A stretch of DNA of 64,000 bases from positions 1 through 64,000 of IMG/VR virus record IMGVR_UViG_3300045738_001212; one strand, written 5' to 3'. The notes under the pieces are model-generated. The model ran no database searches, was not told the origin of the DNA, and saw only the letters and a list, made by a program, of their open reading frames with translations. This DNA comes from a virus. Below are positions 26,884-43,314 of the stretch, piece by piece. The translations under genes and the position numbers were made by a program. Within the stretch, counting starts at the first letter, position 1. Every line of letters begins with the position of its first letter.

Positions 26884-27448
26884 TTATTCTTCAAGTACAC
26901 TTTCGACCTCATCAAAGTCCAAGAATCCCTCTTCCTTTAGGTAGATCGATATGTTTGCTGCTTTAGCAAAGTCCTTACTGGAATCGTCCTGCCTATTCGG
27001 AAAGACTAGTTCTTTCTTGTAGTAATCGATGATTACGTCTTCTCCATGCACGGTCATTGATAGAAACATTTTCTTCATTACTAAAACTATAGCAGATATC
27101 TGCTTTGAAGTCAAGTATCTATTGACCTTGAACAACTTCTAAAAGTTGCAAATTTTGTCGCTCCAGACTCCTGTTCTCCATGTACCAAAAAACATTTAAA
27201 GCTAAACTCATACCTAGTGCCGCCGACAAGAGGTACAGCGTTGCTGTTTTGCAAAATTCTTTAATTGATCCTAACGGGAAAGCTCCACAGTTCATTTTTT
27301 TAATCCTTTTCTGGGGTTTTGGTGTGATTTTCTGTTTTTTCTTCTTTTTCGGATGCCAATCTCCGTCATGGTACTCGTAGTCACTCGCATCTTCACGAGC
27401 GTTAAGCTGCCATTTGCCATTTACGTAAACCGCTTTGTCTTGCTTCAT
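26884..27448 (-). other. two small hypothetical genes (26884-27135; 27119-27448 with one TM helix)
   Basis: ORF track, co-oriented with phoH. Confidence 0.55.
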
Positions 27449-27449
27449 T

Positions 27450-28235
27450 TCATTCTACGTTTTTAAGTCTTGTGATTAGAAATTTGACAAGTTTTGACCT
27501 CATAATATCTTCTTCTGTGAAAGAGAATGTGTGGATTCCCATTTCTCGACTTTCTTCGTCGCTAAAGGTCTTTGCCATCTTTTCAAATCCGCCTATTAGT
27601 TGATGGCTCTTAATGTCTGTTTGCATTGGGTCTGCTAGGACAAAACATTTGCTGCCTTTCCCAAGCCTAGTTAGAACGGTGGTGATTTCTTTTATGGTGC
27701 TGTTTTGTGCTTCATCTAAAATTATGCACTTGGCAGTCCAATTCATTCCCCGCGCAAAATTAACAGGGAACATGCTTATTCTTTTTTGTTCTTCTAATTT
27801 TTCTATTCGAGTGTTTAGGAGAAGCTCGTCCAATTTGTCCAGAAAAGGTAAATTATAGAATCTTAGTTTGTCTTCTGCGCTTCCGGGTAAGAAGCCTAAA
27901 CTGTGTGCGCCGCTTTCCACGGCAGAGCGAAGGTACATGATATCAGATATGACTTTCATGTTTAGTAATTGAAGAGAGCAATACACCGAGAGCAGAGTTT
28001 TAGAAGAGCCAGCGGGACCGTCAACAAACATGACCTTTGTGTCGGGATGCAAAGCTATCTTAAAGAACTCCTTTTGCCTTTCGGTCCAAGGGAACTGTTT
28101 AATTTTAATAAGTCTTTTTATTGGGTTGGGATTTTTAAAACTATCCGATAGGGAATCTTCCATTTCTTGAACTTCTTGTTGTAATTCCAATTTTCCCGCC
28201 GCTCTGGACCTTTTGCTAGGCATTTTGTCTTTCAC
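27450..28235 (-). CDS. phoH: PhoH-family ATPase
   Basis: GPAGSSKT, LGFLPG, ARGMNW, ILDEAQN, LTRLG, DPMQTD, DIMRS. Confidence 0.92.
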   Translation of the reverse strand: MKDKMPSKRSRAAGKLELQQEVQEMEDSLSDSFKNPNPIKRLIKIKQFPWTERQKEFFKIALHPDTKVMFVDGPAGSSKTLLSVYCSLQLLNMKVISDIMYLRSAVESGAHSLGFLPGSAEDKLRFYNLPFLDKLDELLLNTRIEKLEEQKRISMFPVNFARGMNWTAKCIILDEAQNSTIKEITTVLTRLGKGSKCFVLADPMQTDIKSHQLIGGFEKMAKTFSDEESREMGIHTFSFTEEDIMRSKLVKFLITRLKNVE

Positions 28236-28511
28236 CTTACATAGATATACACTTAGATAGGTAGTCTACGAAAAGCCTTCTTAGTTATGCGAACCAATTG
28301 AAATGCAAATAAAAATTTTAAAAAAGATACCCCGTCGGGATTTTTCGAACCCTAATGCAACTGAAAGGTTTGGTCTCGGGGAGACTGAAAAATAGCACCC
28401 CCCTACCGCCTGACAATTTCCATTTAGAAAAAATTTGCAATATTGGGGCCGGGGGGAATTGCTTTTTTTATTTTTCTTGACGAGTTCCCGTTTCTGTGTT
28501 ATATTGTACCC

Positions 28512-28718
28512 ATGAGCGAGACCTACAATGACCCTTCTGATTCCACCCGTGTGCGCGAGCGTTGTGAAGACGCGCCGTGCTGCGGCTGCTGCGGCCCCGA
28601 TACCGTGGGCGGCTACGACCCCCAACCCTACGGCGGCTTTGAAGGCCAGTGGGCTGGTGACGGCTCCGGTTTGGATGACCTCGCGGACTTTAACGCGATG
28701 GAGGGCATGGATATGTGA
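28512..28718 (+). CDS. small acidic Cys-rich early protein (RCEDAPCCGCC), leaderless; start corrected
   Basis: TTGACG-N17-TATATT-N6-ATG. Confidence 0.75.
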   Translation: MSETYNDPSDSTRVRERCEDAPCCGCCGPDTVGGYDPQPYGGFEGQWAGDGSGLDDLADFNAMEGMDM

Positions 28719-28766
28719 ATAACTTTACCCTTGACAAGGGGACGTTCGTGTGTTAATATTATACCA

Positions 28767-28943
28767 ATGATGAACGAGACGACATTTGAAGTTAGCTGGG
28801 CCTACGGCGAAACCACCTTTATCAACGCCCGTGACGAGGCGCAAGCCGAGCGTATGGCCGCGCAGATGGGCAGAGCCCACGGGTTGGGCAAGGTCAAGTG
28901 GGTGCGTCACGCATCGCTGGACAAGGCAAACAGCGAGTTTTAA
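28767..28943 (+). CDS. small early protein (x-A-x-D/S-E-x-x-A family), leaderless; start corrected
   Basis: TTGACA-N17-TAATAT-N7-ATG. Confidence 0.7.
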   Translation: MMNETTFEVSWAYGETTFINARDEAQAERMAAQMGRAHGLGKVKWVRHASLDKANSEF

Positions 28944-29095
28944 CGACTTACCCCTTTAACTCGCCGCGAAGCGGTGAGTTAAGGAAGCCCCCGCACTTTT
29001 TTCAACTCAGTGCAACAAAAACATCTCAGGACAGATGCGCTTATTTCGTTCCGATTAAAATTTGCTATTTTCTTAATTTAAATTTGCTGAATTTG

Positions 29096-29557
29096 CTATT
29101 TTCTTAATTTGAAAAACTTATGTTTACCAACGATTTTTATAGGTGTGCTTGTGCGCGTCCAATAGTTGTGAGTGTTAACGTGACAGTAGTGGTCGGCATT
29201 GCCAACGTAGCTATGCTGTAAGTTGTTTATGTTTGTTGCAAGCATCTTTGCATAGGCCGCGTGTTGGTGCGTCTTTAATAGCGTGGGTAGTTTCTTTCTA
29301 TTAGGGTCACGCTCATCCCAACAAGAGAATTGCCATATCCTCTTACCCTTTTGCAAGCAGACTTGCTTTGCTGTTTTGTTTCTATTGATTACACGTTGAG
29401 CGATAACACAGGCCACGCCATACATACCGGCTTCGCCCTCGCCACGCGCTTCGCCTAAGATCGTCATGGCTACCACGTCGCGTTCGGTATACTCTTCGGC
29501 ACACAGCCCCATCAGTATAATAAAAAGCATGACAAAAAATATAAATCTAACGAACAT
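29096..29557 (-). CDS. cell-wall hydrolase (SleB/Hydrolase_2 family) with N-terminal hydrophobic segment
   Basis: TILGEARGE, VIAQR, QFSCW, ADHY, VGKHKF. Confidence 0.88.
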   Translation of the reverse strand: MFVRFIFFVMLFIILMGLCAEEYTERDVVAMTILGEARGEGEAGMYGVACVIAQRVINRNKTAKQVCLQKGKRIWQFSCWDERDPNRKKLPTLLKTHQHAAYAKMLATNINNLQHSYVGNADHYCHVNTHNYWTRTSTPIKIVGKHKFFKLRK

Positions 29558-29580
29558 AAATAATCCTTTTGTTGAATGTT

Positions 29581-29626
29581 AAAAGTAGGGTGACGCAAGG
29601 AGAGACCACTAACCTTGCGCCACCCT
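29581..29626 (-). terminator. terminator-like hairpin with 12-nt loop UUAGUGGUCUCU
   Basis: 14-bp stem with G-U on minus strand followed by ACUUUU. Confidence 0.75.
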
Positions 29627-29635
29627 GTTCTATGA

Positions 29636-30019
29636 CTACCACCAGCACGAGTAAACTATCTTCCACCCGCCAGCTAGTGCCTTCCTAGCCTTCTGGATGA
29701 ATTCGATGTCGTCATCCTTGTAGCCGTATTCACCTTCATAATCCTCATAGGAATCATTGCCGAAGAAGAAGCCTCCTGTCTCTGGTAGTTCCTTGTCTAG
29801 GATAGCTTGCTCTAGGCTGTCCAAATCCTCCTCGTCAATAGTTACATCAACAAGATTGAATTCTCCATCGCCACCCTTGCTGCGCCAAAGCTCTTCCATC
29901 CACCCTTGCAAGCGATTATGCTTGCGCCAGTAGTGAAGCTCCGTCTTGGTGATGGTGTCGGTGCGTGTGTCTGAATCGTAGTCAGACTTAACTTGATATG
30001 CTGTTTGGTCGAGTCCCAT
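29636..30019 (-). CDS. conserved phage protein (MGLD...YWRK.N.L..W...YSCWW type)
   Basis: recognisable motif; SD AGGAGA. Confidence 0.75.
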   Translation of the reverse strand: MGLDQTAYQVKSDYDSDTRTDTITKTELHYWRKHNRLQGWMEELWRSKGGDGEFNLVDVTIDEEDLDSLEQAILDKELPETGGFFFGNDSYEDYEGEYGYKDDDIEFIQKARKALAGGWKIVYSCWW

Positions 30020-30028
30020 AGTAATCTC

Positions 30029-30954
30029 CTAGTTAGTGGTTGCGGTTGGTAGTGGTGGTAGTGCCAGCGGTTTAGGTAGCGGTGGCAACGGTGGGAGGCT
30101 GGCCATGTAAGCCAATCTCTCTACTTCAGCGAATGAAATACTGAATTGCTTCTTTAAGATAGGCAGCGCAGCCTTAATCTTGTAGAGGCGATAGGCTTCA
30201 GCCTTTGCCTCCTCGTGGGTTGCGCCTTCCTTCTTTCGGGCTTTGATGTGGTTGGTTACTTCAGCAGCCTTGACTGCGTTGCGAGCTTGGTAGGTTTTGT
30301 ATGTCTTCATTGGTAAGAGTATGCCTGAATTTGGTGTTGGTGTCAAGTTTATTCCTATATGGTTACCGCTGAGAGGCCGTTGGCTAGGATGGGCCGCTTG
30401 TGCAACGGCGCGAACGAATTGATGCGATGCCAGTTGAATCGGCGGATGACGTTTTCATAACCGTCACGGCATACCGTAGCGACAAAGCCCCCGTTGCCCG
30501 AAAAGAAGAATTCGTCGGGCGTGAGGATGAGATAGTTTTCAGTCTTGCCGTTGGCCTTGGTGTAGTTGAGTTCGAATGCTTTCTTGGTGTATGTCATGGT
30601 TATAATATACCATGAAAGAGCCTCGTTGTCAAGCAGTTTCTCACAGTGTTTCAATGTAAATCCCTGTTGCCAGTATCACCACGAATGACACGATGCCAAT
30701 AATGAGAACAAAATAAATATCTCTGAAATCGTCTTTCATAATCCCTCCTTGATATAATTATGCGTTCCCATCTTTTCAATAAAATGAGTTTCAAGCATAT
30801 CAAATTGATGCATCGCCGTGCCTCTGTTGTTGGCCCATTCTAACGCCCTAAAGAGTGAACAAGCTTTTTGATAAGTCTCACACACTTGAGCCGCTGCTAT
30901 GTTTTGATGCACTGACGTTGGCACTACGTTTTGTTCTTTTCCGTTTTTGGTCAT
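30029..30954 (-). other. small early genes 30029-30310, 30355-30597, 30736-30954 (starts corrected by promoter position)
   Basis: leaderless promoters / translational coupling. Confidence 0.7.
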
Positions 30955-31064
30955 AAAGGTTTCTTGTGTTTAGGTTTCCGAGTGTAAGAGCCTTTGCCCT
31001 TCTTAACGCGATGCTCACGGGACGCGCTGCCCATGTAGCCCTCTTTGTTTTTCCGCGCTTTCAT
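30951..31064 (-). CDS. 37-aa ArfA-like ribosome-rescue peptide (not in ORF track): MKARKNKEGYMGSASREHRVKKGKGSYTRKPKHKKPL
   Basis: KKGKGSYxRKxKH motif as in ArfA; own leaderless promoter; ATGA coupling to next gene. Confidence 0.75.
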   Translation of the reverse strand: MKARKNKEGYMGSASREHRVKKGKGSYTRKPKHKKPL

Positions 31065-31082
31065 AGTGATAATATACCACTG

Positions 31083-31189
31083 AAACGTCTCACTGTCAAG
31101 GATAAACCACCCAACCCGCCGCGTAGCGGTGGGTTGTTTTAGCTTGCACTGAGATAAAAAATCTGCGGGCGTTTTTCTGACTCACTGTC
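31083..31189. repeat. about 107-bp exact direct repeat (second copy about 33151-33257) containing promoter -35 box, hairpin and 35-bp dyad
   Basis: aaacgtctcactgtcaaggataaaccacc...ctgactcactgtc identical in both. Confidence 0.92.
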
Positions 31190-31194
31190 AAGCC

Positions 31195-31617
31195 TTAAAC
31201 TACAGCCCAGCACCGATGCCCCACGAAACAATACGCTGATTTGGCGATGGGACGTTTCTCTTTTACCGTCACAAAAGTCTTATGCTTGTAAGGGTCGTAA
31301 GTCACCTCCACCCACTTGCCATCCACAGCCATCGTCTTCGCTTGCTTTAGCATCTCTTGAGGGGAAATCATATTTACAACAGGGCGATGCCCGGTATACG
31401 TAATCCACTTACCGCGCACGTAGGCGTGTACGTTCTTACGCATCTCATCCCGGACGCGATCATTGCCCTTGGCACCAACGACGAATTCAACATCATGCAA
31501 CAGAATACCTCTCACATGTTTGGCCACTAGGCCATCGTGTCGGGTACGCACCGAGTAAACCCGATCCGTCTTGTCTCCCCTGTGCAGGTTCCTGTAAACG
31601 TCTACCTTGCTTTTCAT
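31195..31617 (-). CDS. conserved phage protein (VYRNLH...KNVHAYV.G...YDPY type)
   Basis: recognisable motif. Confidence 0.7.
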   Translation of the reverse strand: MKSKVDVYRNLHRGDKTDRVYSVRTRHDGLVAKHVRGILLHDVEFVVGAKGNDRVRDEMRKNVHAYVRGKWITYTGHRPVVNMISPQEMLKQAKTMAVDGKWVEVTYDPYKHKTFVTVKEKRPIAKSAYCFVGHRCWAVV

Positions 31618-31997
31618 TAGTCTACGTTCTCCATGTCGTCGTGCATCATATTCTCAAGCTTGCCAATCTTGTCATCGCTTAACCCCGCTCGCCAATCATC
31701 ATCATCATATTCATTCTCCTCCTTCTCCCAGCGGTATCCCTCTGGCGGCATGATGTGCCACAAATCATTCGCCCTTGCCTCGCCTATGATGTAAGGCTTA
31801 ATCTCTTCCATTGAAACGTCGCCCCATTCATTCTCAACACCCATAACGTAGCCGAAGGCTATGCCGTTTTCGTCTGGCTCTCCCAGATAATACTCCCACA
31901 TATTCCGAAGGATGATGTGCTGGTGAACGGTGAACGCGCTGATGGGTAAGGTGCGGTTGTTTATGGGGACTATGTTTCTAGGTTTTGTAGGTTTCAT
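31617..31997 (-). CDS. DUF2958-like protein, leaderless
   Basis: WEYY...FGYVMG.E.EWGDVS.EEI. Confidence 0.55.
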   Translation of the reverse strand: MKPTKPRNIVPINNRTLPISAFTVHQHIILRNMWEYYLGEPDENGIAFGYVMGVENEWGDVSMEEIKPYIIGEARANDLWHIMPPEGYRWEKEENEYDDDDWRAGLSDDKIGKLENMMHDDMENVD

Positions 31998-32861
31998 TAG
32001 GTATAATGTAACACTTTAGAGGCCGCTTGTCAAGCGGTTTTTTGAGTTTCGACGCCGAACATCTTCTCACCGCGACCCACCCACGAAGGGCCGTCAACGA
32101 GCCACGACGCTGTGCCAGTATCCGACAAGCAAGCTACCGTCGGGCTTTCAATTTCCCCTTCCGTTAAGCCACAGGCGGCCTTGAAGCGGTCAACGTCAAA
32201 ACGCGGGTTGTCCTTGGCAAACTGGGTTGCGGCTAGTGTAGCCAGCACAGCGGCGGGTGTGCCGTTGTTGGCTGCGTTGATGAGGGCGGCGACGAATTCG
32301 AAGTGTTCTTTTGTTGTTTTCATTAGGTATAGTCTAACGCTTTAGAGGCCGCTTGTCAAGCTTTTTATCTGCATCGTTCAATGTCCTTTTCTCTTTTTAG
32401 CTCCGCCTCTTCTTCGTGGGTGAAAAGTCTGCCGAGGGTGATTGACTCAATCTCAAGGCCGATCTTGCTACCGAAATACATATCCCGCACGTTAGCGAAT
32501 GAGGTTCCGGTTGCGGCCCAGCGTGTGCCATTGGTTGTGGTTACGATAAAATCGGTTGTTTCTTTTATGTCTTTCATTAGGTATAGTCTAACACTTTAGA
32601 GACCGATTGTCAAGGATAAAGTTGTCCCCCCGCGCAAGCGGGGGGGGGTTAGCCTAGACCCCCCTGTGCGCTTCCACACAGGCCACCTCTTTAGGGAAGC
32701 CCTTGCGGAGTAGTTCAAGATTGTTGCTGTCAGCCTTACGAATAAGGCGCAACAGTTTAGCGGTGAACCAACTACCCTCTCCACAGAGGATGTTGCCGAT
32801 GTTGTTTTTGTCGTAGTTACTCATTGGGTATACTGTAACACTTTAGAGGCCGCCTGTCAAG
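31993..32861 (-). repeat. four near-identical promoter+ATG cassettes (CTTGACA.GCGGCCTCTAAAGTGTTA...TATACCTAATG)
   Basis: upstream of ATGs at 31997, 32323, 32577, 32824. Confidence 0.9.
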
Positions 32862-33431
32862 CACCAAGTGCGTCCCACGGGTCTACGGGTGCGTTGGGTT
32901 CCTCGTTCCGTTTCATCCAAGGGGTGCGAAGTAACTCCTCCCATTCGCTTGAGCCAACAGCGTCATGATACGCAGCGCGTACTAGCGCGTGGTGGCCGCT
33001 CATTCTCCAATCCCAATCGTTCATATCCTTTGACTTGATAGTGCTGGTCTTGCCCTCTGGTGAGACATAGGTGAACACATGGTTGTTGGTCTTGCGGTTA
33101 GAGTAGAGTAGAAACTTTTCTTTACCTTCCATACGTATAATGTACCACGCAAACGTCTCACTGTCAAGGATAAACCACCCAACCCGCCGCGTAGCGGTGG
33201 GTTGTTTTAGCTTGCACTGAGATAAAAAATCTGCGGGCGTTTTTCTGACTCACTGTCGCATGGCCACGCTTACCACGCATGGGGCCACACGCCGACTATT
33301 TCGCTATTTGGGTGATCGCCTAAAGCGTGAGTCTTGGCTACCGTAAGGGTCATGCCCCAGTAAGAGGCTTCGTAATAGCTGCCCGATGTGAAATTCCGGG
33401 TTCTGATTGTCCAGTTAGATGTTTCGCTCAT
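32030..33431 (-). other. single-gene leaderless units: 32030-32323 (DNPRFD motif), 32365-32577, 32654-32824 (56 aa, unlisted), 32857-33132, 33270-33431 (53 aa, unlisted)
   Basis: each has its own promoter immediately before ATG. Confidence 0.75.
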
Positions 33432-33691
33432 GGGTATAATGTAACACGAAAAACGCTACCTGTCAAGGAAAAACAGTGAGGCTCAAAAAATGCTGCCGCT
33501 TTTTCAACTCACAATCAATTAGGTCAATTAATCACGTTTATATAGGGTAATTGTTTCGCAAGGCACCCCAGTAAAACAGATATTTAGATGATAAGAATTT
33601 CCTATTTACCCCTGATTTCTCCGATGAGAAATACCCCCTTTTTAAGAAATTATATGTTGACAGATAGGCTATTTGGTGGTATAGTATTCTT

Positions 33692-33818
33692 GTTGGTGGC
33701 AATGGTAGCCCTCGCTGAATAAGTGAGTGCCCTCGCAGGAAAGCCCCTAGTGGAAGCGCGACGAAGCTAGACGGTGATACGATACTGGAGGGGTGAGGTT
33801 CAATCCCTCGCACCAATA
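33692..33818 (+). ncRNA. tRNA-like (tRNA-mimic) structured RNA, about 125 nt
   Basis: promoter TTGACA(33657)-N17-TATAGT; acceptor stem GTTGGTG/CACCAAT; D-loop-like AATGGTA; T arm TGAGG-TTCAATC-CCTCG. Confidence 0.75.
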
Positions 33819-33825
33819 ACAATTT

Positions 33826-34023
33826 ATGATGAACGACAAATGTAAATGTGGAGGTTGTGGTGCGCCCGTAGCGTGGGAGTACGACGCCCCTTATCAGGAG
33901 TACCCCGGCGCGAAGGTGTGGGGCGGGGAATGGTTCGTCGAGTGCGAGAAATGCGGGTGGAGCGATGCCACCAAACAAGACTTGAGCCATTACTCCATAC
34001 GCGAGAACACGCGGGGGTGGTGA
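33826..34023 (+). CDS. small zinc-finger protein
   Basis: CGGC...CEKC; stop codon is the first triplet of a 35-bp dyad. Confidence 0.65.
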   Translation: MMNDKCKCGGCGAPVAWEYDAPYQEYPGAKVWGGEWFVECEKCGWSDATKQDLSHYSIRENTRGW

Positions 34024-34148
34024 GTTAAGAAAGCCCCCGCATTTTTTTCAACTCAGTGCAAGCCTTTTCTTTTGTCGATCACGAGTGATCGTCTAAATAG
34101 TTTGTCAATCATATTTCCACTATTTTGATCGTCTAAATTTGCTAAACG

Positions 34149-34179
34149 AAAAGCCCCCCCGCTTGCGCGGGAGGGCTTT
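34149..34179. terminator. intrinsic terminator after DUF932 gene, possibly bidirectional
   Basis: GC stem with GCAA loop flanked by A/T runs. Confidence 0.8.
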
Positions 34180-34199
34180 GGTTCTTCACCCCTTGGCTT

Positions 34200-35093
34200 T
34201 TAGTTCAGAGCCAGCTTGACCACTTCAGAGGGAACGGCCTTGACCAGCTTGTCAAGCTTGGCGGATTGCTCCGCAGCACCCCGCAGCTTCCGCAGCACCT
34301 TGGTGCTAACGGTGTTGGCGTACTCGAAACGCTCCCTGCTCACGTCATGGGTGAGGTGTTGGGTGGCTGCGTTGTAGAGTGTCCACAGATTGCGGGCTTC
34401 GTCTTCCTCGCGGGCGGGATTCTCCCACACCTTGAGGATGCCGTCCTTGACCACGTTAGACAGCACCTTCGAGCGGTTCAACTGGTCGAGGATGTTGCGC
34501 CCCTGCTCTTGCGTGATGTCACGCTCGCCCAAGATGCTGAAGCCTTGCGCGGCTTCGTTGAAGCTTCCGGTGGCTCTGTCGAGAGCGTCCCCGATAAAGC
34601 TAATCTCTACCGCTGCGGTATGACGGCGATTCATGCCGAACTCATTCTCCAAGGTGGTCATGCCGTTGAGGCAAACCAGCCGCACCATGCCAAGCGCGAA
34701 GGATACGCGCAGGGAACGGTCAAAGGAGTTTTGCAGGGTGAGGCGCATTCCTAATTCCATGCCCTTCACTCTGTCCTCGCGCCGTGTGGCGATGGCCGTC
34801 TCATTCGCGAAGTCGTACTGCGCGAACATCTTCTCGCCGCGACCAGTCACGACAATGTGGCGGCTTGTGGGAACCATCCCGCGAGACTCAAAAGCCTCTT
34901 CGGCATTGGCAATCAAATCACCGTTTTGCACAAAGCCGTACTGCTCCGTGCCCCAACCTAATTCCTCGCCCGTATCGGTACGGACGTGCGCGTATACGCG
35001 GGAGCGGTTGCTGTTGGGAAGGGTAAGGGGGACACGCTCCACGGTGTAATCGAAAGCGGTGGGGTCGGAGGTTTGAATAGTGTTTCTGGCCAT
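34200..35093 (-). CDS. DUF932/DUF945-family protein
   Basis: VRTDT...Y..VQN, NSFD.S, RLVCLNGM, RHT, NLWTLYNAAT. Confidence 0.85.
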   Translation of the reverse strand: MARNTIQTSDPTAFDYTVERVPLTLPNSNRSRVYAHVRTDTGEELGWGTEQYGFVQNGDLIANAEEAFESRGMVPTSRHIVVTGRGEKMFAQYDFANETAIATRREDRVKGMELGMRLTLQNSFDRSLRVSFALGMVRLVCLNGMTTLENEFGMNRRHTAAVEISFIGDALDRATGSFNEAAQGFSILGERDITQEQGRNILDQLNRSKVLSNVVKDGILKVWENPAREEDEARNLWTLYNAATQHLTHDVSRERFEYANTVSTKVLRKLRGAAEQSAKLDKLVKAVPSEVVKLALN

Positions 35094-35315
35094 GATTTGT
35101 AGGTCTTTCTTGGTTAAGGGTTATCTCTCACTCACTACAAAGAGTGTATCACCAATCCACTATCCTGTCAAACCTTTTTTTCTGTCATTGGATACAAACC
35201 CGCCGCGCAGCGGTGGGTTTGGGCTTGCACTGAGTTAAAAAATGTGCGGGCGTTTTTACGACTCATTCCCTCCGTTAACCCATCCCTCCGGGCTGGGTTT
35301 ATATTTACACGCTAT

Positions 35316-37603
35316 TTAACTCTCATTCTTTTGCTTATTGCTAAACGGCGAAATCGACTCGGCTCCGCGCAAGTGATGCCGGATACCTAGTTCCACCTTA
35401 TGTTCAGCAGTATAGTCCCAATCGTCTTGGTCAAGGCTATACTCTGATTGGTATGCTGCCTCCATGTTGAAATTGAAATCACATAGAGTCGTGTCGTCAG
35501 TAAGGTTATGCTTCTGCACATACTCACTCAATGCCTCTGCGATAATCTTTATACGCAAGGGGTCGCCTTCAAGTATCATCTCATGCTCTTGTATCTTCAT
35601 TTATCCTCCAATCTCTCGTGTTCTAAAACATCATACTTATTAGCGTCGTCGAGGGTATAACCGTATTCCAGTTGACAGTCGTCTCCATAGTCTCCCTCCC
35701 CACTCATTGCCGTCTTGATAGCGTCGGCCTCATCCTCTGCCTCTACCACGATGTAGCAGTAGTGAACCTCTGGAACCTTAACTGTGAATGTTTTCATTTA
35801 TCCTCCAATCTCTTAAACTTGTCTACTATGATATCACAAACATCTTCCGTAATGGATTGCTTCTCTTCGTCTGTGAACGTGAATGGTGGGGTGTAGCCCT
35901 CCATGTATGTAATCACATCTTCCTGTAGCTGCTCCTTCACCTCTTTAATGACAAGGGATTGCGTGTGCTGAAATGGTTTGCGTAATGTTCTCATGCTTAA
36001 TCCTCCACTCCGTAAATTTCTTCGTAGTGTTCAATAATCTCATGGTCGTCTATGTTATCCATGCCAACGCAACCTTCCCAAAGGACTTGTTTCAAATCCT
36101 CGTCTGAAAAGCCCTCCCATTCAGATTCAAAAAGACGCTCGCGCATCGCTTGAATTTCTTTATCTGTATATTCTTTTACTGTGTCAGTCATAATTTAATC
36201 CTCCAGTAGATGGTCTTTGGCTGCTTCAATTACCTCTTGGTAATACTCGTTGTCCATTGGCTTAAAGCCTTCGAGACAATCTGAAATGGCGCATAGGCCA
36301 TCGACTATTCTGCTTCTGTCCACCATTCTCCCATTGTGGCTAATTGGGCCTTCATCTTGTTTCATGCTGTGATGTACTCTCCTTCCTCATTGAATACGAG
36401 TTCGAGATGTTTCAACTCCCAAGCGTTAGGTGCGTCCTTGAACCATTGGGTGTCCATGAACTTAATCCATGCGCGAGCGTTAGCGTGGGTGTAGGAAATG
36501 CCATCTGCAAACATCACATAGCTCTCATCCCATGTGTTGTAGAAGGTGGCCGTGTAGGCTTTCATTGTAGGTTTCATTACAAGTAATATACCACACCGGA
36601 GCGTGGTTGTCAAGGACTATTCGCTTAACGAGATTTGGTGGTCGCTCTCGGGAATGTTTACCTTTGAGATGTTTTCCTCCCACCTTTGATTCTCAAACAT
36701 GTTGGCGACGGCTTTTGCTACATCTTCTTTTGAAACGTCAGAGAAATCCCTTTTAGGTGTGCTGCCTAATACCTCACCCCAAGGGACATTGATTCTCCAC
36801 CCGACTGCTAAACACTCATGCCATACACCCTTCACGCAAACGTAATCACCCACCATCATTGAGCGAACTTCGAGCTTCTTAAAGAGGGTACACTCCCGAC
36901 CACTCCCGTTGTTCCAATCCTCCCACACCGCGTCAAGGATGTCTGGGTCTGTGTACTCACGCCCCTTGCTGTCCTCTACTGGGTAGTCCAACCAGAACTT
37001 CTTACATTGCTTCTCGGTCATGTCCCGATATTGAATTTTAACTCTTATCATAATCGTTTGCTCCGTGGGTGTAGGTTTCGCTCATAGATATAATGTAACA
37101 CACAAGGTACTACTTGTCAAGAGGTTTCTTCTTAATCATATCCAGTAACTTCTTATCGCACACGCGGGGGTGCTTTCCCCACTTCTCAACTACGTCTGCC
37201 ACCTGCTCACCCTTCTCATAGTCGGGTAGCTTAACAACGTACATGGAGTCACGGTCTCTTAACGTCTCATTGTATACCACGATCATCGGGTCGTCTGAAA
37301 GACGAGCCGATTGAATAGCCTCCTCCTCGGAGTTGGCATCTACGATATAGGTAGCCGAGTGCATTTCAGTTGTTATGACTTTATACTTCATGCCCAGTCC
37401 CCCTGTGAGTCTCCATCTATACCGTGCCTTTGGCATAGCTCATCCCATTCTGTCTCCTCGTAGCGTGACTGCCTTGATTGAGTGTCAAGTGCTACTTCTT
37501 TTAAGTGATTGGTAAGTTCTCCTACATCCTCGAATTGGATGCGAACGATCTTCTCCATTGCCTTGTCTAGTGCTGCTCCATGTAGGTTTCTTGTAGGTTT
37601 CAT
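35316..37603 (-). other. run of small acidic early genes: 35316-35600, 35597-35797, 35794-35994, 35997-36191, 36362-36577, 36617-37051 (RSMMVGD, YodL-like motif), 37110-37391, 37388-37603
   Basis: coupled stops/starts with GGAGGA embedded in ...ED(K)* C-termini. Confidence 0.7.
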
Positions 37604-37705
37604 TACAAAGACTATACCCTACTTCTACCCCCGTGTCAATATCAAAGTTTTTTAAAGTTTTTAATTGCACTGAGTTAAGAAATGTGCCCCCGCTTTTTTA
37701 ACTCA

Positions 37706-38242
37706 CTACCTTGTGATGGGTTTGCTGCACTGTTGACATCGATATTTGCGCCCACGCCTAATCCTATTATGTATTGTCGTGGATATCATATGAGGTCTAT
37801 CAATACAGCCACAGGTGTATTTCCACCGTCTCTGTTTCTTAGTGGATGAGTTCGTGGTATCATAGTTGTGACACCTATCAGGACGTAAGCCAAGCTTACG
37901 CATTACGTTCTTCCATTCGCGCCCGTGCGCCGTGCCACCGAATAGGCAATCTTTAATTAGGTGCGCGTACTCATGGCCAAGCGTTTGCTTTATAAAATGC
38001 TCGGTGTTTTCTTTTAAGAGAATGTAGTTTATTCGTATTTCGTTTTTATTAGAGTTTGCCGTTCCGGCCACCCTGCCTTTCAAGTTAAAGCGCAGCCTTG
38101 TCTCTGGCATACTATGCTTAAACTTTTTCTCTGTGTACTCGTGCAACTCCCTTATTCTATCCTCACACAAACGCACAAGGTCAGCCGTCCTTGGCGCGGC
38201 CAGCCCTGATTCCGTCTCTGTGAAATGTTCTATGATGATCAT
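37706..38242 (-). CDS. SprT-family zinc metalloprotease
   Basis: AGTA, HEYAH, HGREWK, YTCGC, YRCQQC. Confidence 0.9.
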   Translation of the reverse strand: MIIIEHFTETESGLAAPRTADLVRLCEDRIRELHEYTEKKFKHSMPETRLRFNLKGRVAGTANSNKNEIRINYILLKENTEHFIKQTLGHEYAHLIKDCLFGGTAHGREWKNVMRKLGLRPDRCHNYDTTNSSTKKQRRWKYTCGCIDRPHMISTTIHNRIRRGRKYRCQQCSKPITR

Positions 38243-38300
38243 TGTTTTCTAGATATCCAAATGTAGCCGAGCCAAAGTATAACCGCTATGAGTACCCACA

Positions 38301-39098
38301 TTATACAGCCTCCATTTGTTTGCGCTTGCTGTAGCCGTTCCACCCACGCCGTTTCAGTTCCTGTAGTGCTTGGCTTGCTGCGCTACCCTTTGGCTGTGTG
38401 CCGTGAATGAGTAAGGCAAAGCTCTTTGTGCCGAATGCTGCGTGGTAATCATCGTGGTCAATTTCAAAGTCCATTGCATCAGCTTGTTCCTCGCTGTAAA
38501 CTACCTCCGCGTACTTTAGGCCATGCTCGACAATCAGCGCGTCATGCTTGCCACCGTAGGAGGCGGTAAGCGCAAAGTTTGAAGGGATTGAATCAATACG
38601 CGCCACCCAATACTTTAGGCTTTTCGTGTATGCGTAAAAATGTTTGTCAGGCATACGCCGCGCAACTTCAAGCCATGCGTCAAAATACGCTTGATTGAAA
38701 AAGTCACCGCCAACATGGACACGCATGATATCAAATTTTTTGGGAAGCATCGATTCCAGCAAATCAGCAATGGCTTTCACTTGGTCTTTGTCATAACGCC
38801 ATGCGTCCATCATCACTTCTTTAATTGCCTCAAAATTACGCCACACCATTGCGCGAGTGTTTTTGTACTGTGATTCAGAGCTTGCGGCGAAGCAACGAAA
38901 TTCCGTGTCAGGCCCATCCGTGATTTTACCCGTTTCCCTGTTGGCCTTGGATAAGCATTCTTTGGCGGCGGGACAAGTCCACCCACTAGGCAAAGTGAAG
39001 GATTTAATAGTTTTGCCGAGCCGGTTTGCCATCGCGATAAGCTTGGCGTTGGCTTGTGAGAATGTGAGAGTCAAAGGTTTAGTCGTAGTAGGTTTCAT
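38301..39098 (-). CDS. Gp88-like protein (Cys motif, RVHVGGDF)
   Basis: LPSGWTCP..C...CFA, RVHVGGDFF, FYAYTKS. Confidence 0.8.
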   Translation of the reverse strand: MKPTTTKPLTLTFSQANAKLIAMANRLGKTIKSFTLPSGWTCPAAKECLSKANRETGKITDGPDTEFRCFAASSESQYKNTRAMVWRNFEAIKEVMMDAWRYDKDQVKAIADLLESMLPKKFDIMRVHVGGDFFNQAYFDAWLEVARRMPDKHFYAYTKSLKYWVARIDSIPSNFALTASYGGKHDALIVEHGLKYAEVVYSEEQADAMDFEIDHDDYHAAFGTKSFALLIHGTQPKGSAASQALQELKRRGWNGYSKRKQMEAV

Positions 39099-39135
39099 GG
39101 TTATAATATAGCAGGTTTCGCTGTGTCTGTCAAGG

Positions 39136-40403
39136 TTAAACGCCTATAAAATGCGCTGCGGTTTTCTTCGTCCAAAAGCCGTCGGCATCTATATTCCCAC
39201 CGTTACTCGCTCGCCCACCATTGCCCACGGGAATGGGAGCAACACTATACTCGCCCATGTTTGAATGTTTAATGAAGGGTTCGGAAACTAAACTGTTGAA
39301 CCTTAAACGCGCAAGTAGTCGAGCGTATCGCCTAATCTTTTCCTTGAGCTTGTTTCCGAATTTGCCTAGTAGGTAGGCGAGGGATGAGTTGTAAAGATAC
39401 TTCTTATAGCTTTCCTCTGTCGTCCAGATGTAAGCGAACCTCTCAGACATATGAATCAACTCGCCGTTGTAGGCTCCGTGGTTGTACCAACTGAAATCTT
39501 GTGATTCGATTTCCTTGGGGTCATTAGATTGGATACCAACGGCCCAGCTTGAGCCTTGGGGACAATAGAACAGTGAGGGTTTCTTTCTAGGTTTCATATG
39601 TATAATGTAGCATAAAAAAGTCCCCCTGTCAAGGGGGACTTTCAGTGTTAGGCCGAGGCTAAACCTTTGCCGTAGTCGATTAAGTCGAGGTCGTGCGTTG
39701 CCGCAGCAGTCGCGTCAGTGATGTCCGAGAATTCGAATATCTCAATCGCTGGCAAGTTGTTGCCGTACTTTCCCTCTGGGAGGTCTGAATACTTTGGCAC
39801 TACGGCCTCGCGGAGAAGGGCGATCTTCTTTAGGTCATCTCTGATGAGTTGGGCCTCCATTCCGTCATTGCCGAGATTATGCTCGTCGATTCTTGTCTGT
39901 GCTTCTGCGACATCTTTTTCAAGTCGCACGATATGTTTGCCGAAGGCAATCTCTAGTTTGTTATTCATCTAGAACAATGTACCATCGATTACCCTGTTTG
40001 TCAATTAAAATCGATTAAAACTTTTTAAAATTTTCCGCTTGTAGTGAGTGAAAAAATGTGCCGCCGTTTTCTAAACTCATTGCAAGAAAAAAAGCCCCCC
40101 CGAAGGGGAGCCTCTCATGAACGGTTATTTAACCTTTATTTATTTGCTTATTATTTACGGCTTATTTATTTGCCAATTATTTAATTAATATTTATTTGCT
40201 AATTATTTAATCATTTCATCGCTTACATCGTCCTCTACTATTGCCCAGTCTACTTCCCATGAGCCTTCTACATATGTTCCATTGTCTGGTAAGCCTATGC
40301 CCATGTCCGACTCTGCTATCTCAGCAGCGTGTTGGCGCGTGTCCGACTTAACAGTTACCCAACCATACATCTGCCAAGCTACTGGTACTTTGTATTCTTT
40401 CAT
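39136..40403 (-). other. hypothetical early genes 39136-39597, 39648-39968, 40203-40403
   Basis: ORFs with leaderless promoters or coupling. Confidence 0.7.
40087..40113 (-). terminator. intrinsic terminator (UUCG loop, U7)
   Basis: ggctcccc-ttcg-gggggc-ttttttt on minus strand. Confidence 0.75.
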
Positions 40404-41372
40404 TTAACGCTCCTCCTTTCCGAACATTGCTTCTAGGTATTGCTTGCCTTGCGGCGTGATGTTGCGACCCGCAGTCGTGATTTCCATGAGGTCATTCTTT
40501 TGCAAGTACAACTCATAGTCACGGCGCAGCGATTCAGGCGTCATGCCTGTCTTGGAGCCGAGGCGGGTAAGGGACACGTCCCGACTCACCTGAAGTATCC
40601 GAAGCACTTCAACTTCTTTCGGACGCAACCCAAGAGGACGGATGCCAAGGGTATGGGTGAGGCTATTCCAATCAGCGAAACCGAATGCCTTTCCATTACC
40701 GTTGGCGTCCAAATACATTTGAATCTTTATTGCCATTTTTTGTGCGGCGCGAGCATTGCCACGAAGCACGGATGCGACTTCAGCTACCAAGCCATCCTCG
40801 AACTTAAGGTCAGGAAGATTGATTTGCACGATAGTACCCAATTCAGTATAGGTGTACTCTTCTAGGTCAACCCTATCCAGCCTGTCCATGAGCGCATGAA
40901 ACACTTTGTGTGGTTCACTGGTGGCGAACAGGAAGGTCTGACGACGGAAATCGAAGTCTACCGTGTAGTCATCATAGCTAAAAGAGTTACGATTGCGTGG
41001 GTTGGGATTAAGGATAGTCAGCAATGCCATCTCCACGTCTTGAGGAATCTCGCTTGCTTCATCAAACAAGATAGTGACATCACGGTCATTGAGGTGAGGA
41101 ATAATTAACTCATCAAAGAATTTTTTAACATTTTTAAGAGTAGAACAATTTACTTCTATGTATCTTTTAGGCCCATCATCTCCATCCTTCACCAACTCTT
41201 TTGCGAGAGCAGTTGCCAACATGGTCTTGCCACACCCCTTTGGCGCGGTGAACATTAAGTTGGGGATGAGTCCTGCTTTCTCGTAGGAATCAATGTAGAA
41301 GTTGAGTTTGCGTTTTGCGGTGTCTTGTCCGATGACACCATTGAATCTTGGAAGCTTGTAGGTTTCGCTCAT
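40404..41372 (-). CDS. ruvB: RuvB-like AAA+ ATPase (Holliday-junction branch-migration motor homologue)
   Basis: IGQ, Walker A APKGCGKT, FDE, ALMDR, RGNARAA, E.YL...TTAGR winged-helix C-terminus. Confidence 0.8.
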   Translation of the reverse strand: MSETYKLPRFNGVIGQDTAKRKLNFYIDSYEKAGLIPNLMFTAPKGCGKTMLATALAKELVKDGDDGPKRYIEVNCSTLKNVKKFFDELIIPHLNDRDVTILFDEASEIPQDVEMALLTILNPNPRNRNSFSYDDYTVDFDFRRQTFLFATSEPHKVFHALMDRLDRVDLEEYTYTELGTIVQINLPDLKFEDGLVAEVASVLRGNARAAQKMAIKIQMYLDANGNGKAFGFADWNSLTHTLGIRPLGLRPKEVEVLRILQVSRDVSLTRLGSKTGMTPESLRRDYELYLQKNDLMEITTAGRNITPQGKQYLEAMFGKEER

Positions 41373-41410
41373 GTATAAAGCATACCATTAATCTAGTATG
41401 CTGTCAAGGA

Positions 41411-41915
41411 CTAATTTCCTTTCTCGGCTCGACGAATAACCTCTTCCATAACGTCTCTCATTACGCGCTGGTCGGCTTTACTGTGATAAACGTGATGACC
41501 ACTAACGACATCAAAATTATTAATAATAATATTCTTCTTCCACGGATTGCATTCATCTACCACTTCATTCCATGCGGTTTCATATCTTGCCGCCATGCCT
41601 GTTGGTGGTGGGGGTGGGAGTTTCATCTTATCTTTTATTACACTCATTTTACCACTTCTCCTCTACTTCTACGTGAGTCTTATCGTTCTCTTCGAAGTCG
41701 GTGACTTTCACGTTTACGTTTTCTTTGGTGTTATCTGAAACAGCAGTTATATCAGGAGTGACAACCCCGAGGTCTACGGCCCACTTGCGTGAGACTTTAA
41801 CCACCATGCTGGGGCGAAGAAGCTCGTTCAACTGAGCAAGAGTGATATTGCAAAATGAGTAGGAACCTTTTTTGCGTCCACTACCAACTTTCCTCTTTTT
41901 CTTTTTATCGGCCAT
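41411..41915 (-). other. two small hypothetical genes (41411-41647, 41649-41915)
   Basis: ORF track; leaderless promoter at 41915. Confidence 0.65.
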
Positions 41916-42056
41916 ATAAGAATAATAACCGAAATCTACTCCCCTGTCAAGATTTTTTTAAAGAAAAGAACAAGCATAAAAACAATAATACTAATAAATA
42001 AAAATGAGATGTATGCTATTGTCAACACCCCTATATAGCAGCCCACCACTATCTCT

Positions 42057-42395
42057 TTAAGCGTCCTCATCGAATCTGTATTTCAAGTCATTGTATAGTA
42101 TGCGCGAAAGTGTATTGCCGAACGCTAATACTTGCGTCTCGGTAAGCTCTGGGAAGTAAGCGTGAGCAGTCTCATGGATGACCGTGTTAAGTATCACTTG
42201 ATTGGAGCGATGAGGGTTTATCAAGATGGTCGTAGGCTCTTTTCCTATCACAGGATAGAAGCAGACACCATCGCAATCCTCTCCCCACCTGCGCTTGTCC
42301 GGCTTCCTGAAGACGAATTCATAGGGAACGCCTTTGCAATTTTTAAATTTTAAATAATTTTTCAATTCCACCCCTAAGCTAAAATAGTCTAACAC
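42057..42395 (-). CDS. small HExxH metallopeptidase-like protein
   Basis: NTVIHETAH. Confidence 0.7.
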   Translation of the reverse strand: MLDYFSLGVELKNYLKFKNCKGVPYEFVFRKPDKRRWGEDCDGVCFYPVIGKEPTTILINPHRSNQVILNTVIHETAHAYFPELTETQVLAFGNTLSRILYNDLKYRFDEDA

Positions 42396-42538
42396 GATAC
42401 AGGATAATCCTGAATAAGTCTAATAAGATAGGATATTCCTAAATAACCCCAAAAAAGACTAAAAGAACACGTCTATATTTTACCATATATTTCGCCTTTT
42501 TGCAAGCATTATTTCAGGCGTTTAGAAAAACTTGGAGC

Positions 42539-42659
42539 AAAGAAAGACCCCCCGCTACAAGAACTTAAGCAGCGGGGGGTCGGGATATCCCCCTGAATCC
42601 CGCTGTGAGGCAGGACTCCAACCAGTTGGGTCAGGAGGTGGTCCGGTGAACCAACTGTA
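42539..42659 (-). ncRNA. candidate small RNA B with anti-SD CACCUCC(U) hairpin and terminator
   Basis: TTAGAA-N17-TATAAT promoter; three hairpins; U-tract. Confidence 0.7.
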
Positions 42660-42695
42660 TAAGTATTATACGATAGGAGGTGTTTTGTTCTAATG

Positions 42696-42760
42696 AAAAA
42701 AGCCCCTGACCGAAGTCAGAGGCAGGTGAGATGAATGTCCTAGACTGGAAGTCTTCGGAG
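42696..42760 (-). ncRNA. candidate small RNA A with unpaired CAUUCAUCUCACCU and UUCG terminator
   Basis: TTAGAA-N17-TATAAT promoter; hairpin, linker, terminator. Confidence 0.7.
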
Positions 42761-42834
42761 CGATATTATAATTTTAAATTAAATTTATTCTAATTTTTTT
42801 TACTGCTTGATAGCAGCGGTGAATGAATTAAAGA

Positions 42835-43189
42835 AGTTGTTGTAATCCTTTTAATTAGTCAGCACACCAGTGATGTTTTAATCCTCTATATTTGGAATCA
42901 ATAAATTTGCTATTTTTTCTCCCTTTCAGACCGTGTTTTAATCCTCTAATACTTAAATGGAGTCATGTTGTTGTAATCCTCTCACCCTATTACTCTCTGT
43001 GTTTTAATCCTCTATATTTGGAGTCAATAAATTTGCTGTTTTTTTATCGGCGTTTGGTTATGTGTTTTAATCCTCTAATACTTAAATTAAATGGCTTTCA
43101 GGGCGATGTTTTAATCCTCACAAAATACATTCCCGAGCTTCATGTGTTTTAATCCTCGTGCTTAAAGCGGCGAATGTTGTAATCCACTA
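42835..43189 (-). repeat. array of nine GAGGATTAMAACA-type repeats downstream of a sigma70 promoter (candidate ncRNA)
   Basis: TTGACT(43223)-N17-TATACT; no long ORF on the transcribed strand; internal ~85-bp duplication. Confidence 0.8.
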
Positions 43190-43314
43190 CAAGAAGTATA
43201 CCACCAGCCTTATTTCGAGTCAAGAAGATTTATGGGGAAAAATTAATTAATATATTTAAACTTTTTAAAATTTGCGGGGGCCAGATTTGTTTTGACTTTG
43301 TATCAGATTTATGA

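Follow-up and report, generated by a model that had tools for sequence, protein, structure and literature searches.

Described rescue factors and phage homologs of ArfA

The ribosome rescue factor ArfA of beta- and gammaproteobacteria (YhdL, PF03889; PDB entries 5MDV, 5MGP, 5H5U, and 5U4I), was the closest described relative of the peptide considered here. In E. coli, arfA is expressed from a non-stop mRNA that results from RNase III cleavage of a hairpin, and its level is kept low by tmRNA. Cryo-EM places the tail region of ArfA in the mRNA tunnel, and residues 2 to approximately 20 form a hydrophobic minidomain (A18, L19, L24, and F25) that binds W319 of RF2 and opens RF2 (PMC5378476). The tunnel is contacted by the KGKGS and KH residues of the tail (PMC5378476, PMC8012679). 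ArfT of Francisella tularensis is a proven release-factor-dependent rescue factor of 40 aa that ends at an ordinary stop codon and acts together with RF1 or RF2 (PMC6299226), and the structure of Bacillus BrfA on the ribosome has been solved (PMC8012679).

Several phage proteins carry the name ArfA. Protein ATN93434 of Pseudoalteromonas phage J2-1 is so named in GenBank, and the same name has been given to g10 of Citromicrobium phage RXM (PMC8953757) and to gp30 of pelagiphage HTVC027P, which is transcribed early in infection (PMC12753301). Two further phage sequences were observed under another label or under none: gp99c of Salmonella phage Arash (L038:1498-1638), labeled ribosomal protein L2, was a homolog of the canonical type, with 63% identity across residues 4-41 of ArfA, and an unannotated ArfA-like ORF of Pseudomonas phage pf16 (L039:1495-1635) was located on the strand opposite pf16_199. 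These canonical-type phage ArfAs (J2-1, RXM g10, Arash gp99c, and pf16) were 47-60 aa long, were found among small early genes, and could be aligned to E. coli ArfA starting at its residue 4 or 14. All four ended at real stops, and the non-stop mRNA may be a feature of cellular arfA only. No experimental test of any phage ArfA was found in the literature searched, where the mentions were annotations in genome and transcriptome papers and database names.

The peptide analyzed here is 37 aa long, and some members of its own family are named ArfA by JGI. Like ArfA, it is small, disordered, and basic; its KGKGS core, an aromatic residue, an arginine, and the KH pair align residue-for-residue with ArfA 28-45, and its end corresponds approximately to the end of the visible, active part of ArfA. 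Unlike ArfA, it has an N-terminus that, depending on the alignment, is approximately 9-12 residues shorter than in the E. coli protein and that includes nothing detectably equivalent to the RF2-opening hydrophobic minidomain. Its gene has a true stop after residue 37 and no RNase III hairpin, and its family is encoded almost only by viruses. Because of the true stop codon and the lack of an RNase III hairpin, expression in the phage is presumably not gated by tmRNA.

The peptide shares with the canonical-type phage ArfAs that it is phage-borne and that a real stop follows soon after the tail. However, those proteins keep an N-terminal A..L..P.F followed by R.RV or a close variant, whereas the peptide family has an invariant block of its own. 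ArfT can be likened to the peptide by description only (approximately 40 aa, a normal stop, and a basic C-terminal tail resembling KGKGS), but its tail motif differs and has been placed in another, broadly distributed family (PMC6514570). The profile search of the PDB, with E values up to 10 accepted, gave no match to BrfA, the PDB being assumed to include a BrfA chain. HTVC027P gp30 is likewise a small marine-phage protein with an ArfA-like tail, but it is 58 aa long, its N-terminal two-thirds are unrelated, and an R replaces the second K in the tail. Its gene (L040:15768-15944, minus strand) adjoins the small terminase gene, and only a variant of the tail is common with ArfA. Phage ArfA was thus already known as an annotation, and the present family is a virus-restricted variant in which an ArfA tail is combined with a different front module.

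The 37-codon gene and its conservation

The window (the whole stretch of DNA analyzed, 64,000 nt) is part of an IMG/VR viral genome of 158 kb, estimated to be 91% complete, that carries tail fibres, a terminase, a clamp loader, and a rIIA-like gene. An earlier note, made from the letters of the window alone, had described a 37-aa ORF with an ArfA motif; the ORF was present, with the quoted motif in its rear part (Table 1). The peptide matched 11 of the 13 residues of the E. coli ArfA motif, which was read from arfA in NC_000913 and was the same as the motif quoted in that note. The best match in 40 trinucleotide shuffles of the window was 8/13, and the ArfA-type motif occurred a single time in the whole 158-kb genome. 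Two other details of the earlier description were also found: fewer residues precede the motif than in ArfA, and a real stop (TGA) follows just after it and overlaps the ATG of the next ORF.

Table 1 Features of the peptide gene and its surroundings (window coordinates)
Feature	Position	Strand	Remarks
CDS of the 37-aa peptide with ArfA tail	30951..31064	-	37 codons, ATG start, TGA stop; coding part without stop codon, 30954-31064
Family-specific N-terminal block, residues 3-18	31011..31058	-	Invariant or nearly so at most positions; without ArfA counterpart
ArfA-homologous tail, residues 16-34	30963..31019	-	Basic; KKGKGSY core and KH pair; predicted location, the 30S mRNA entry channel
ATGA stop/start overlap of the peptide ORF and the next ORF	30951..30954	-	Typical of translational coupling
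Sigma-70-type promoter	31071..31099	-	-35 TTGACA, 31099..31094; 17-nt spacer ending in TG (extended -10); -10 TATATT, 31076..31071
Promoter and start	31062..31099	-	TTGACA, 17 nt, TG-extended TATATT, 6 nt, ATG
Downstream 72-aa ORF	30736..30954	-	Same transcription unit as the peptide gene
32-aa hydrophobic ORF	30641..30739	-	4-nt overlap with the stop of the 72-aa ORF; last gene before the promoter at 30632
GC-rich hairpin	31112..31136		11 pairs, 3-nt loop; flanked by the upstream gene (31195..31617) and the promoter; cassette boundary

The peptide gene was carried by 33 viral loci in a scan of IMG/VR. A profile search of 1.84 billion representative proteins gave 79 clusters (53 of them at E below 1e-10), and 39 small proteins with the same core were recovered by a word-index search, the query of which needs 40 aa and was therefore made by adding three upstream window codons to the 37-aa peptide. 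Over 31 core codons in 27 distinct nucleotide versions, pN/pS was 0.245 (mean pS 0.74, mean pN 0.18). Third codon positions had an entropy of 1.27 bits, compared with 0.44 and 0.45 bits at first and second positions, and the two other forward frames were closed in most of the 27 versions. Among 23 aligned family members (alignment A1), 17 residues were invariant. The 37-codon ORF is thus a real gene under selection.

It could be argued that the ORF is a chance frame behind a promoter, since it is very short and had no homolog among 50,697 deposited phage records. That search gave nothing useful either by megablast with the region or by tblastn with the peptide and a 105-aa relative, and as a test it was limited by the low-complexity filter and the short query. 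A chance frame is extremely improbable, given the low pN/pS, the frame kept in all 27 nucleotide versions with the other forward frames mostly closed, and a promoter and start that are kept in frame in 18 of the 28 distinct upstream regions (the -35/-10 pair ending 5-8 nt ahead of the in-frame start). For practical purposes, the 33 IMG/VR loci and the selection on codons refute it.

Homology to ArfA in the tail

The only Pfam family matched by the peptide was PF03889 (E = 1.3e-4, model positions 26-44 of 44), with a score of 21.8 bits that is below the curated gathering cut-off of 25.5 bits; an HMM search of this kind had been proposed in the earlier note, and its outcome was thus a significant E value with a subthreshold score. 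Model positions 1-25 were unmatched in the Pfam search of the peptide and the family members. All 23 aligned family members matched PF03889, again as the sole Pfam family (best E = 2.5e-5), and the precomputed Pfam data list it for one relative, P0006. When the peptide was compared with E. coli ArfA by BLASTP, residues 16-33 aligned on ArfA 28-45 with 12/18 identical. Alignment of the family with canonical ArfA by hhalign (probability 94%, E = 1.5e-7) extended over 24 columns from ArfA Q27 onward; the canonical profile (A2) was thin (10 sequences, 5 of them nearly identical), because a search with E. coli ArfA as query gave close enterobacterial copies only.

Searches of wider databases showed the same trend. 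The family profile had six distinct matches in the whole PDB (177,635 distinct sequences), all of them ArfA, with E about 0.01. The nearest ESM Atlas clusters were 40-43-aa proteins, with PF03889 in 33-78%. The peptide had no match in NCBIfam, and in PHROGs it matched, over the tail, only three families without an assigned function (phrog_37108, phrog_2701, and phrog_18092). Within the family (alignment A1), the KGKGS and KH residues were invariant or at least 90% conserved. Judged from these comparisons, the homology to ArfA is statistically significant and limited to the C-terminal mRNA-channel tail, the similarity covering approximately 19-24 residues of a lysine/glycine-rich segment. The likeness to ArfA that had been noticed at the outset was therefore borne out for the tail, by PF03889, BLASTP, hhalign, and the PDB search alike, but ArfA's N-terminal minidomain had no detectable counterpart.

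The front half of the peptide

Approximately 15-18 residues precede the tail; most of them are polar or charged, and they include only one conserved aromatic/Leu-Met pair. Neither the Pfam model nor hhalign aligned this front half to ArfA. Within the family (alignment A1), the front block was conserved as strongly as the tail, and because it is as invariant as the tail, we conclude from within-family conservation that the front half does something specific. A gapless alignment of the front half that starts from a shared R-V pair and sets the aromatic/Leu-Met pair opposite ArfA L19-L20 was considered and rejected, being without support from profile methods. The earlier description of the peptide as ArfA-like was accordingly sustained for the homologous channel tail, whereas RF2 recruitment by the peptide remains an inference, since the RF2-activating minidomain has no detectable counterpart.

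Proposed function and alternative explanations

A release-factor-dependent, constitutively made rescue factor for stalled ribosomes is, in our opinion, the best explanation of the peptide, and we give it an even chance. A small, disordered early peptide would bind host ribosomes with an empty mRNA entry channel, that is, ribosomes that have reached the 3′ end of a cut or truncated mRNA and stalled there. The basic rear half of the peptide (approximately residues 16-34) would thread into the channel, as the ArfA tail does, and the conserved front half would occupy the A site and the decoding centre and aid a host class-I release factor. The release factor would then cut the peptidyl-tRNA without a stop codon, and the ribosome would go back to the pool. 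A strong, probably leaderless early promoter would lead to constitutive expression, with no check by tmRNA, and the phage could benefit from ribosomes freed after host mRNA decay or an RNA-cutting defence. We infer ribosome binding, release-factor recruitment, and phage benefit; that the peptide binds the ribosomal mRNA tunnel is the part we consider likely.

The constitutive rescue factor proposed in the earlier note is plausible as to its expression, because the gene has a true stop and, unlike E. coli arfA, no regulatory hairpin was found in the peptide mRNA (fold z 0.09, no significant structure). Since the phage encodes no release-factor domain, rescue would depend on the fit of a host release factor: RF-1 domains and tmRNA were absent from the 158-kb genome, which has 6 tRNAs only. 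Against rescue stand the PF03889 score below the cut-off, the silence of NCBIfam, the short span of the lysine/glycine-rich match, and the RF2-opening hydrophobic minidomain without an aligned counterpart. In its favor, the precedent of ArfT indicates that a peptide of this size and layout suffices for rescue.

The restriction of ArfA homology to the tail, together with the missing RF2-activating minidomain, would also suit a peptide that binds the empty mRNA tunnel and leaves the release factor inactive. Such a plug would compete with tmRNA-SmpB or host ArfA, or would park vacant ribosomes, and during takeover would thereby shift the rescue route or reduce host translation. Binding without release is possible, as the A18T mutant of ArfA indicates (PMC5378476), and trans-translation is inhibited by a peptide that corresponds to the tail of SmpB (PMC8012679). 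However, the front half, which a plain plug would not need, is conserved as strongly as the tail. A plug would moreover block the mRNAs of the phage itself, leaderless ones included, because all mRNAs use the same tunnel, and the phage has no obvious gain from ribosomes trapped on dead mRNA. We consider a plug without release unlikely. The tail might alternatively be a generic basic arm, in which a KKGKGSY-type segment is a portable RNA- or DNA-binding module and the peptide is a chaperone, a packaging aid, or a regulator of leaderless early mRNAs; in that case, common chemistry or an exchange of modules, and not a common target, would account for the likeness to ArfA. The region is indeed short, compositionally biased, and below the Pfam cut-off, and the segment alone is common to unrelated small phage families (the three PHROGs named above and HTVC027P gp30). 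This reading is also unlikely, as the match goes further than composition: across 18 residues, K, G, S, Y, R, and KH follow one another in the same order, the trinucleotide shuffles stayed at or below 8/13 (11/13 observed), and ArfA was the sole match among all PDB sequences searched. An AlphaFold2 prediction of the peptide alone gave no autonomous fold (pLDDT 62, pTM 0.22). The lack of a predicted fold is as expected, and free ArfA is likewise disordered; the model is uninformative on the ribosome-bound state and would be compatible with rescue, with a plug, and with a basic arm.

It is possible, although we hold it only tentatively, that the virus-restricted family is a further class of small rescue factors, made of an ArfA tail and a different invariant 16-residue front module. 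If so, it would represent a new way of activating release factors, perhaps RF1 as well as RF2 (as for ArfT) or across many hosts, or alternatively would work on stalled ribosomes with no release factor involved. Phages would deploy it constitutively at the start of infection and so keep ribosomes free while mRNA is destroyed, either by the phage itself or by RNA-cutting host defences.

The peptide family is short enough for chemical synthesis, strongly conserved, and almost confined to viruses, and it separates the channel-sensing tail of ArfA from the part that activates RF2. At stake are the possible control by phages of the stalled-ribosome pool in the course of takeover, and the possibility that a minimal module unlike those of ArfA, BrfA, and ArfT is enough to activate a release factor. 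There may also be a bearing on how phages evade defences that cleave mRNA or tRNA. Should the peptide prove to be a plain ArfA, little would be gained beyond a useful annotation of numerous viral contigs from marine sources.

Distribution of the family

Only 2 of 185,579 species-representative genomes contained the peptide gene. One of them was a 20.9-kb contig (L042, CAZYHH010000017.1) of a metagenome-assembled genome (MAG) labeled Pseudomonadales, and this contig was syntenic with the early region of the window (clamp loader, DUF932, GP88, and ArfA-like gene). Its gene order indicates a phage fragment inside a bacterial bin, and its Pseudomonadales label reflects an artefact of binning or is, at most, a weak hint at the host. 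The second MAG contig, of 11.7 kb, had the peptide gene alone in common with this genome. Because so few species genomes carry the gene, one of them on a phage fragment, and because no deposited phage matched at BLAST sensitivity, the family appears, as far as sequence databases indicate, to be encoded almost exclusively by viruses that are uncultured and for the most part marine (Tara and JGI sources).

The neighbors of the gene in relatives were a DUF932 protein, a 143-156-aa protein, a GP88 protein, and an L5 gp82-like protein, all of them early genes. In many relatives, the 143-156-aa protein (no family match; 24 loci) and then the GP88 (PF17338) protein (17 loci) were located downstream of the peptide gene. 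The pair was directly downstream of the ArfA-like gene in most relatives (for example, L004:4143-5322 and L007:4146-5409), and the window copies of the pair were at 39136-39597 and 38301-39098 (minus strand), 8 kb from the peptide gene. The pair was considered as a functional partner and rejected in view of this distance, which leaves cassette order only; since neighbor order differs in this genome, no functional partner emerges.

Promoter and flanking genes

The promoter of the peptide gene matched 11 of 12 consensus positions, plus the TG, and no Shine-Dalgarno sequence was found ahead of the peptide ATG. Because the -10 element ends 6 nt before the ATG, the mRNA is probably leaderless, and promoter geometry points to a start at or within one base of the A of the ATG. 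In several database relatives, the gene had been over-called upstream, so that the promoter itself was translated. The earlier note had given the peptide "its own leaderless promoter"; a near-consensus promoter is in place, but it is not special to this gene, since approximately 20 early genes are alike in this respect. These genes, on both strands of 27000-43300, were located behind TTGACA-N17-TAnnnT with the -10 ending 5-8 nt before the start (for example, the promoters at 30595-30632, 36575-36613, and 39096-39133). The genome contained 26 promoter-abutting cassettes, 21 of them between 27 and 43 kb. Perfect promoters of the TTGACA/-10 type numbered four in the window (0.06 expected), all four abutted an ATG, and one such ATG opens a 265-codon gene. 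Large-scale use of leaderless translation is suggested by this arrangement.

The 72-aa ORF downstream of the peptide gene had no Pfam or PHROG match. It was conserved in some relatives (57-67% identity by tblastn in L002, L025/26, and L031-33), where it was located elsewhere than the peptide gene and is thus unlinked to it. The 32-codon ORF that follows is probably a real membrane micro-protein with a single hydrophobic helix, since it was 69-88% identical in five related viral contigs (L002, L003, and L012-L014). Position 30632 marks the next promoter of the same type as that of the peptide gene. On the other side of the peptide gene, the GC-rich hairpin had a terminator score on the plus strand only, although the flanking genes are all on the minus strand.
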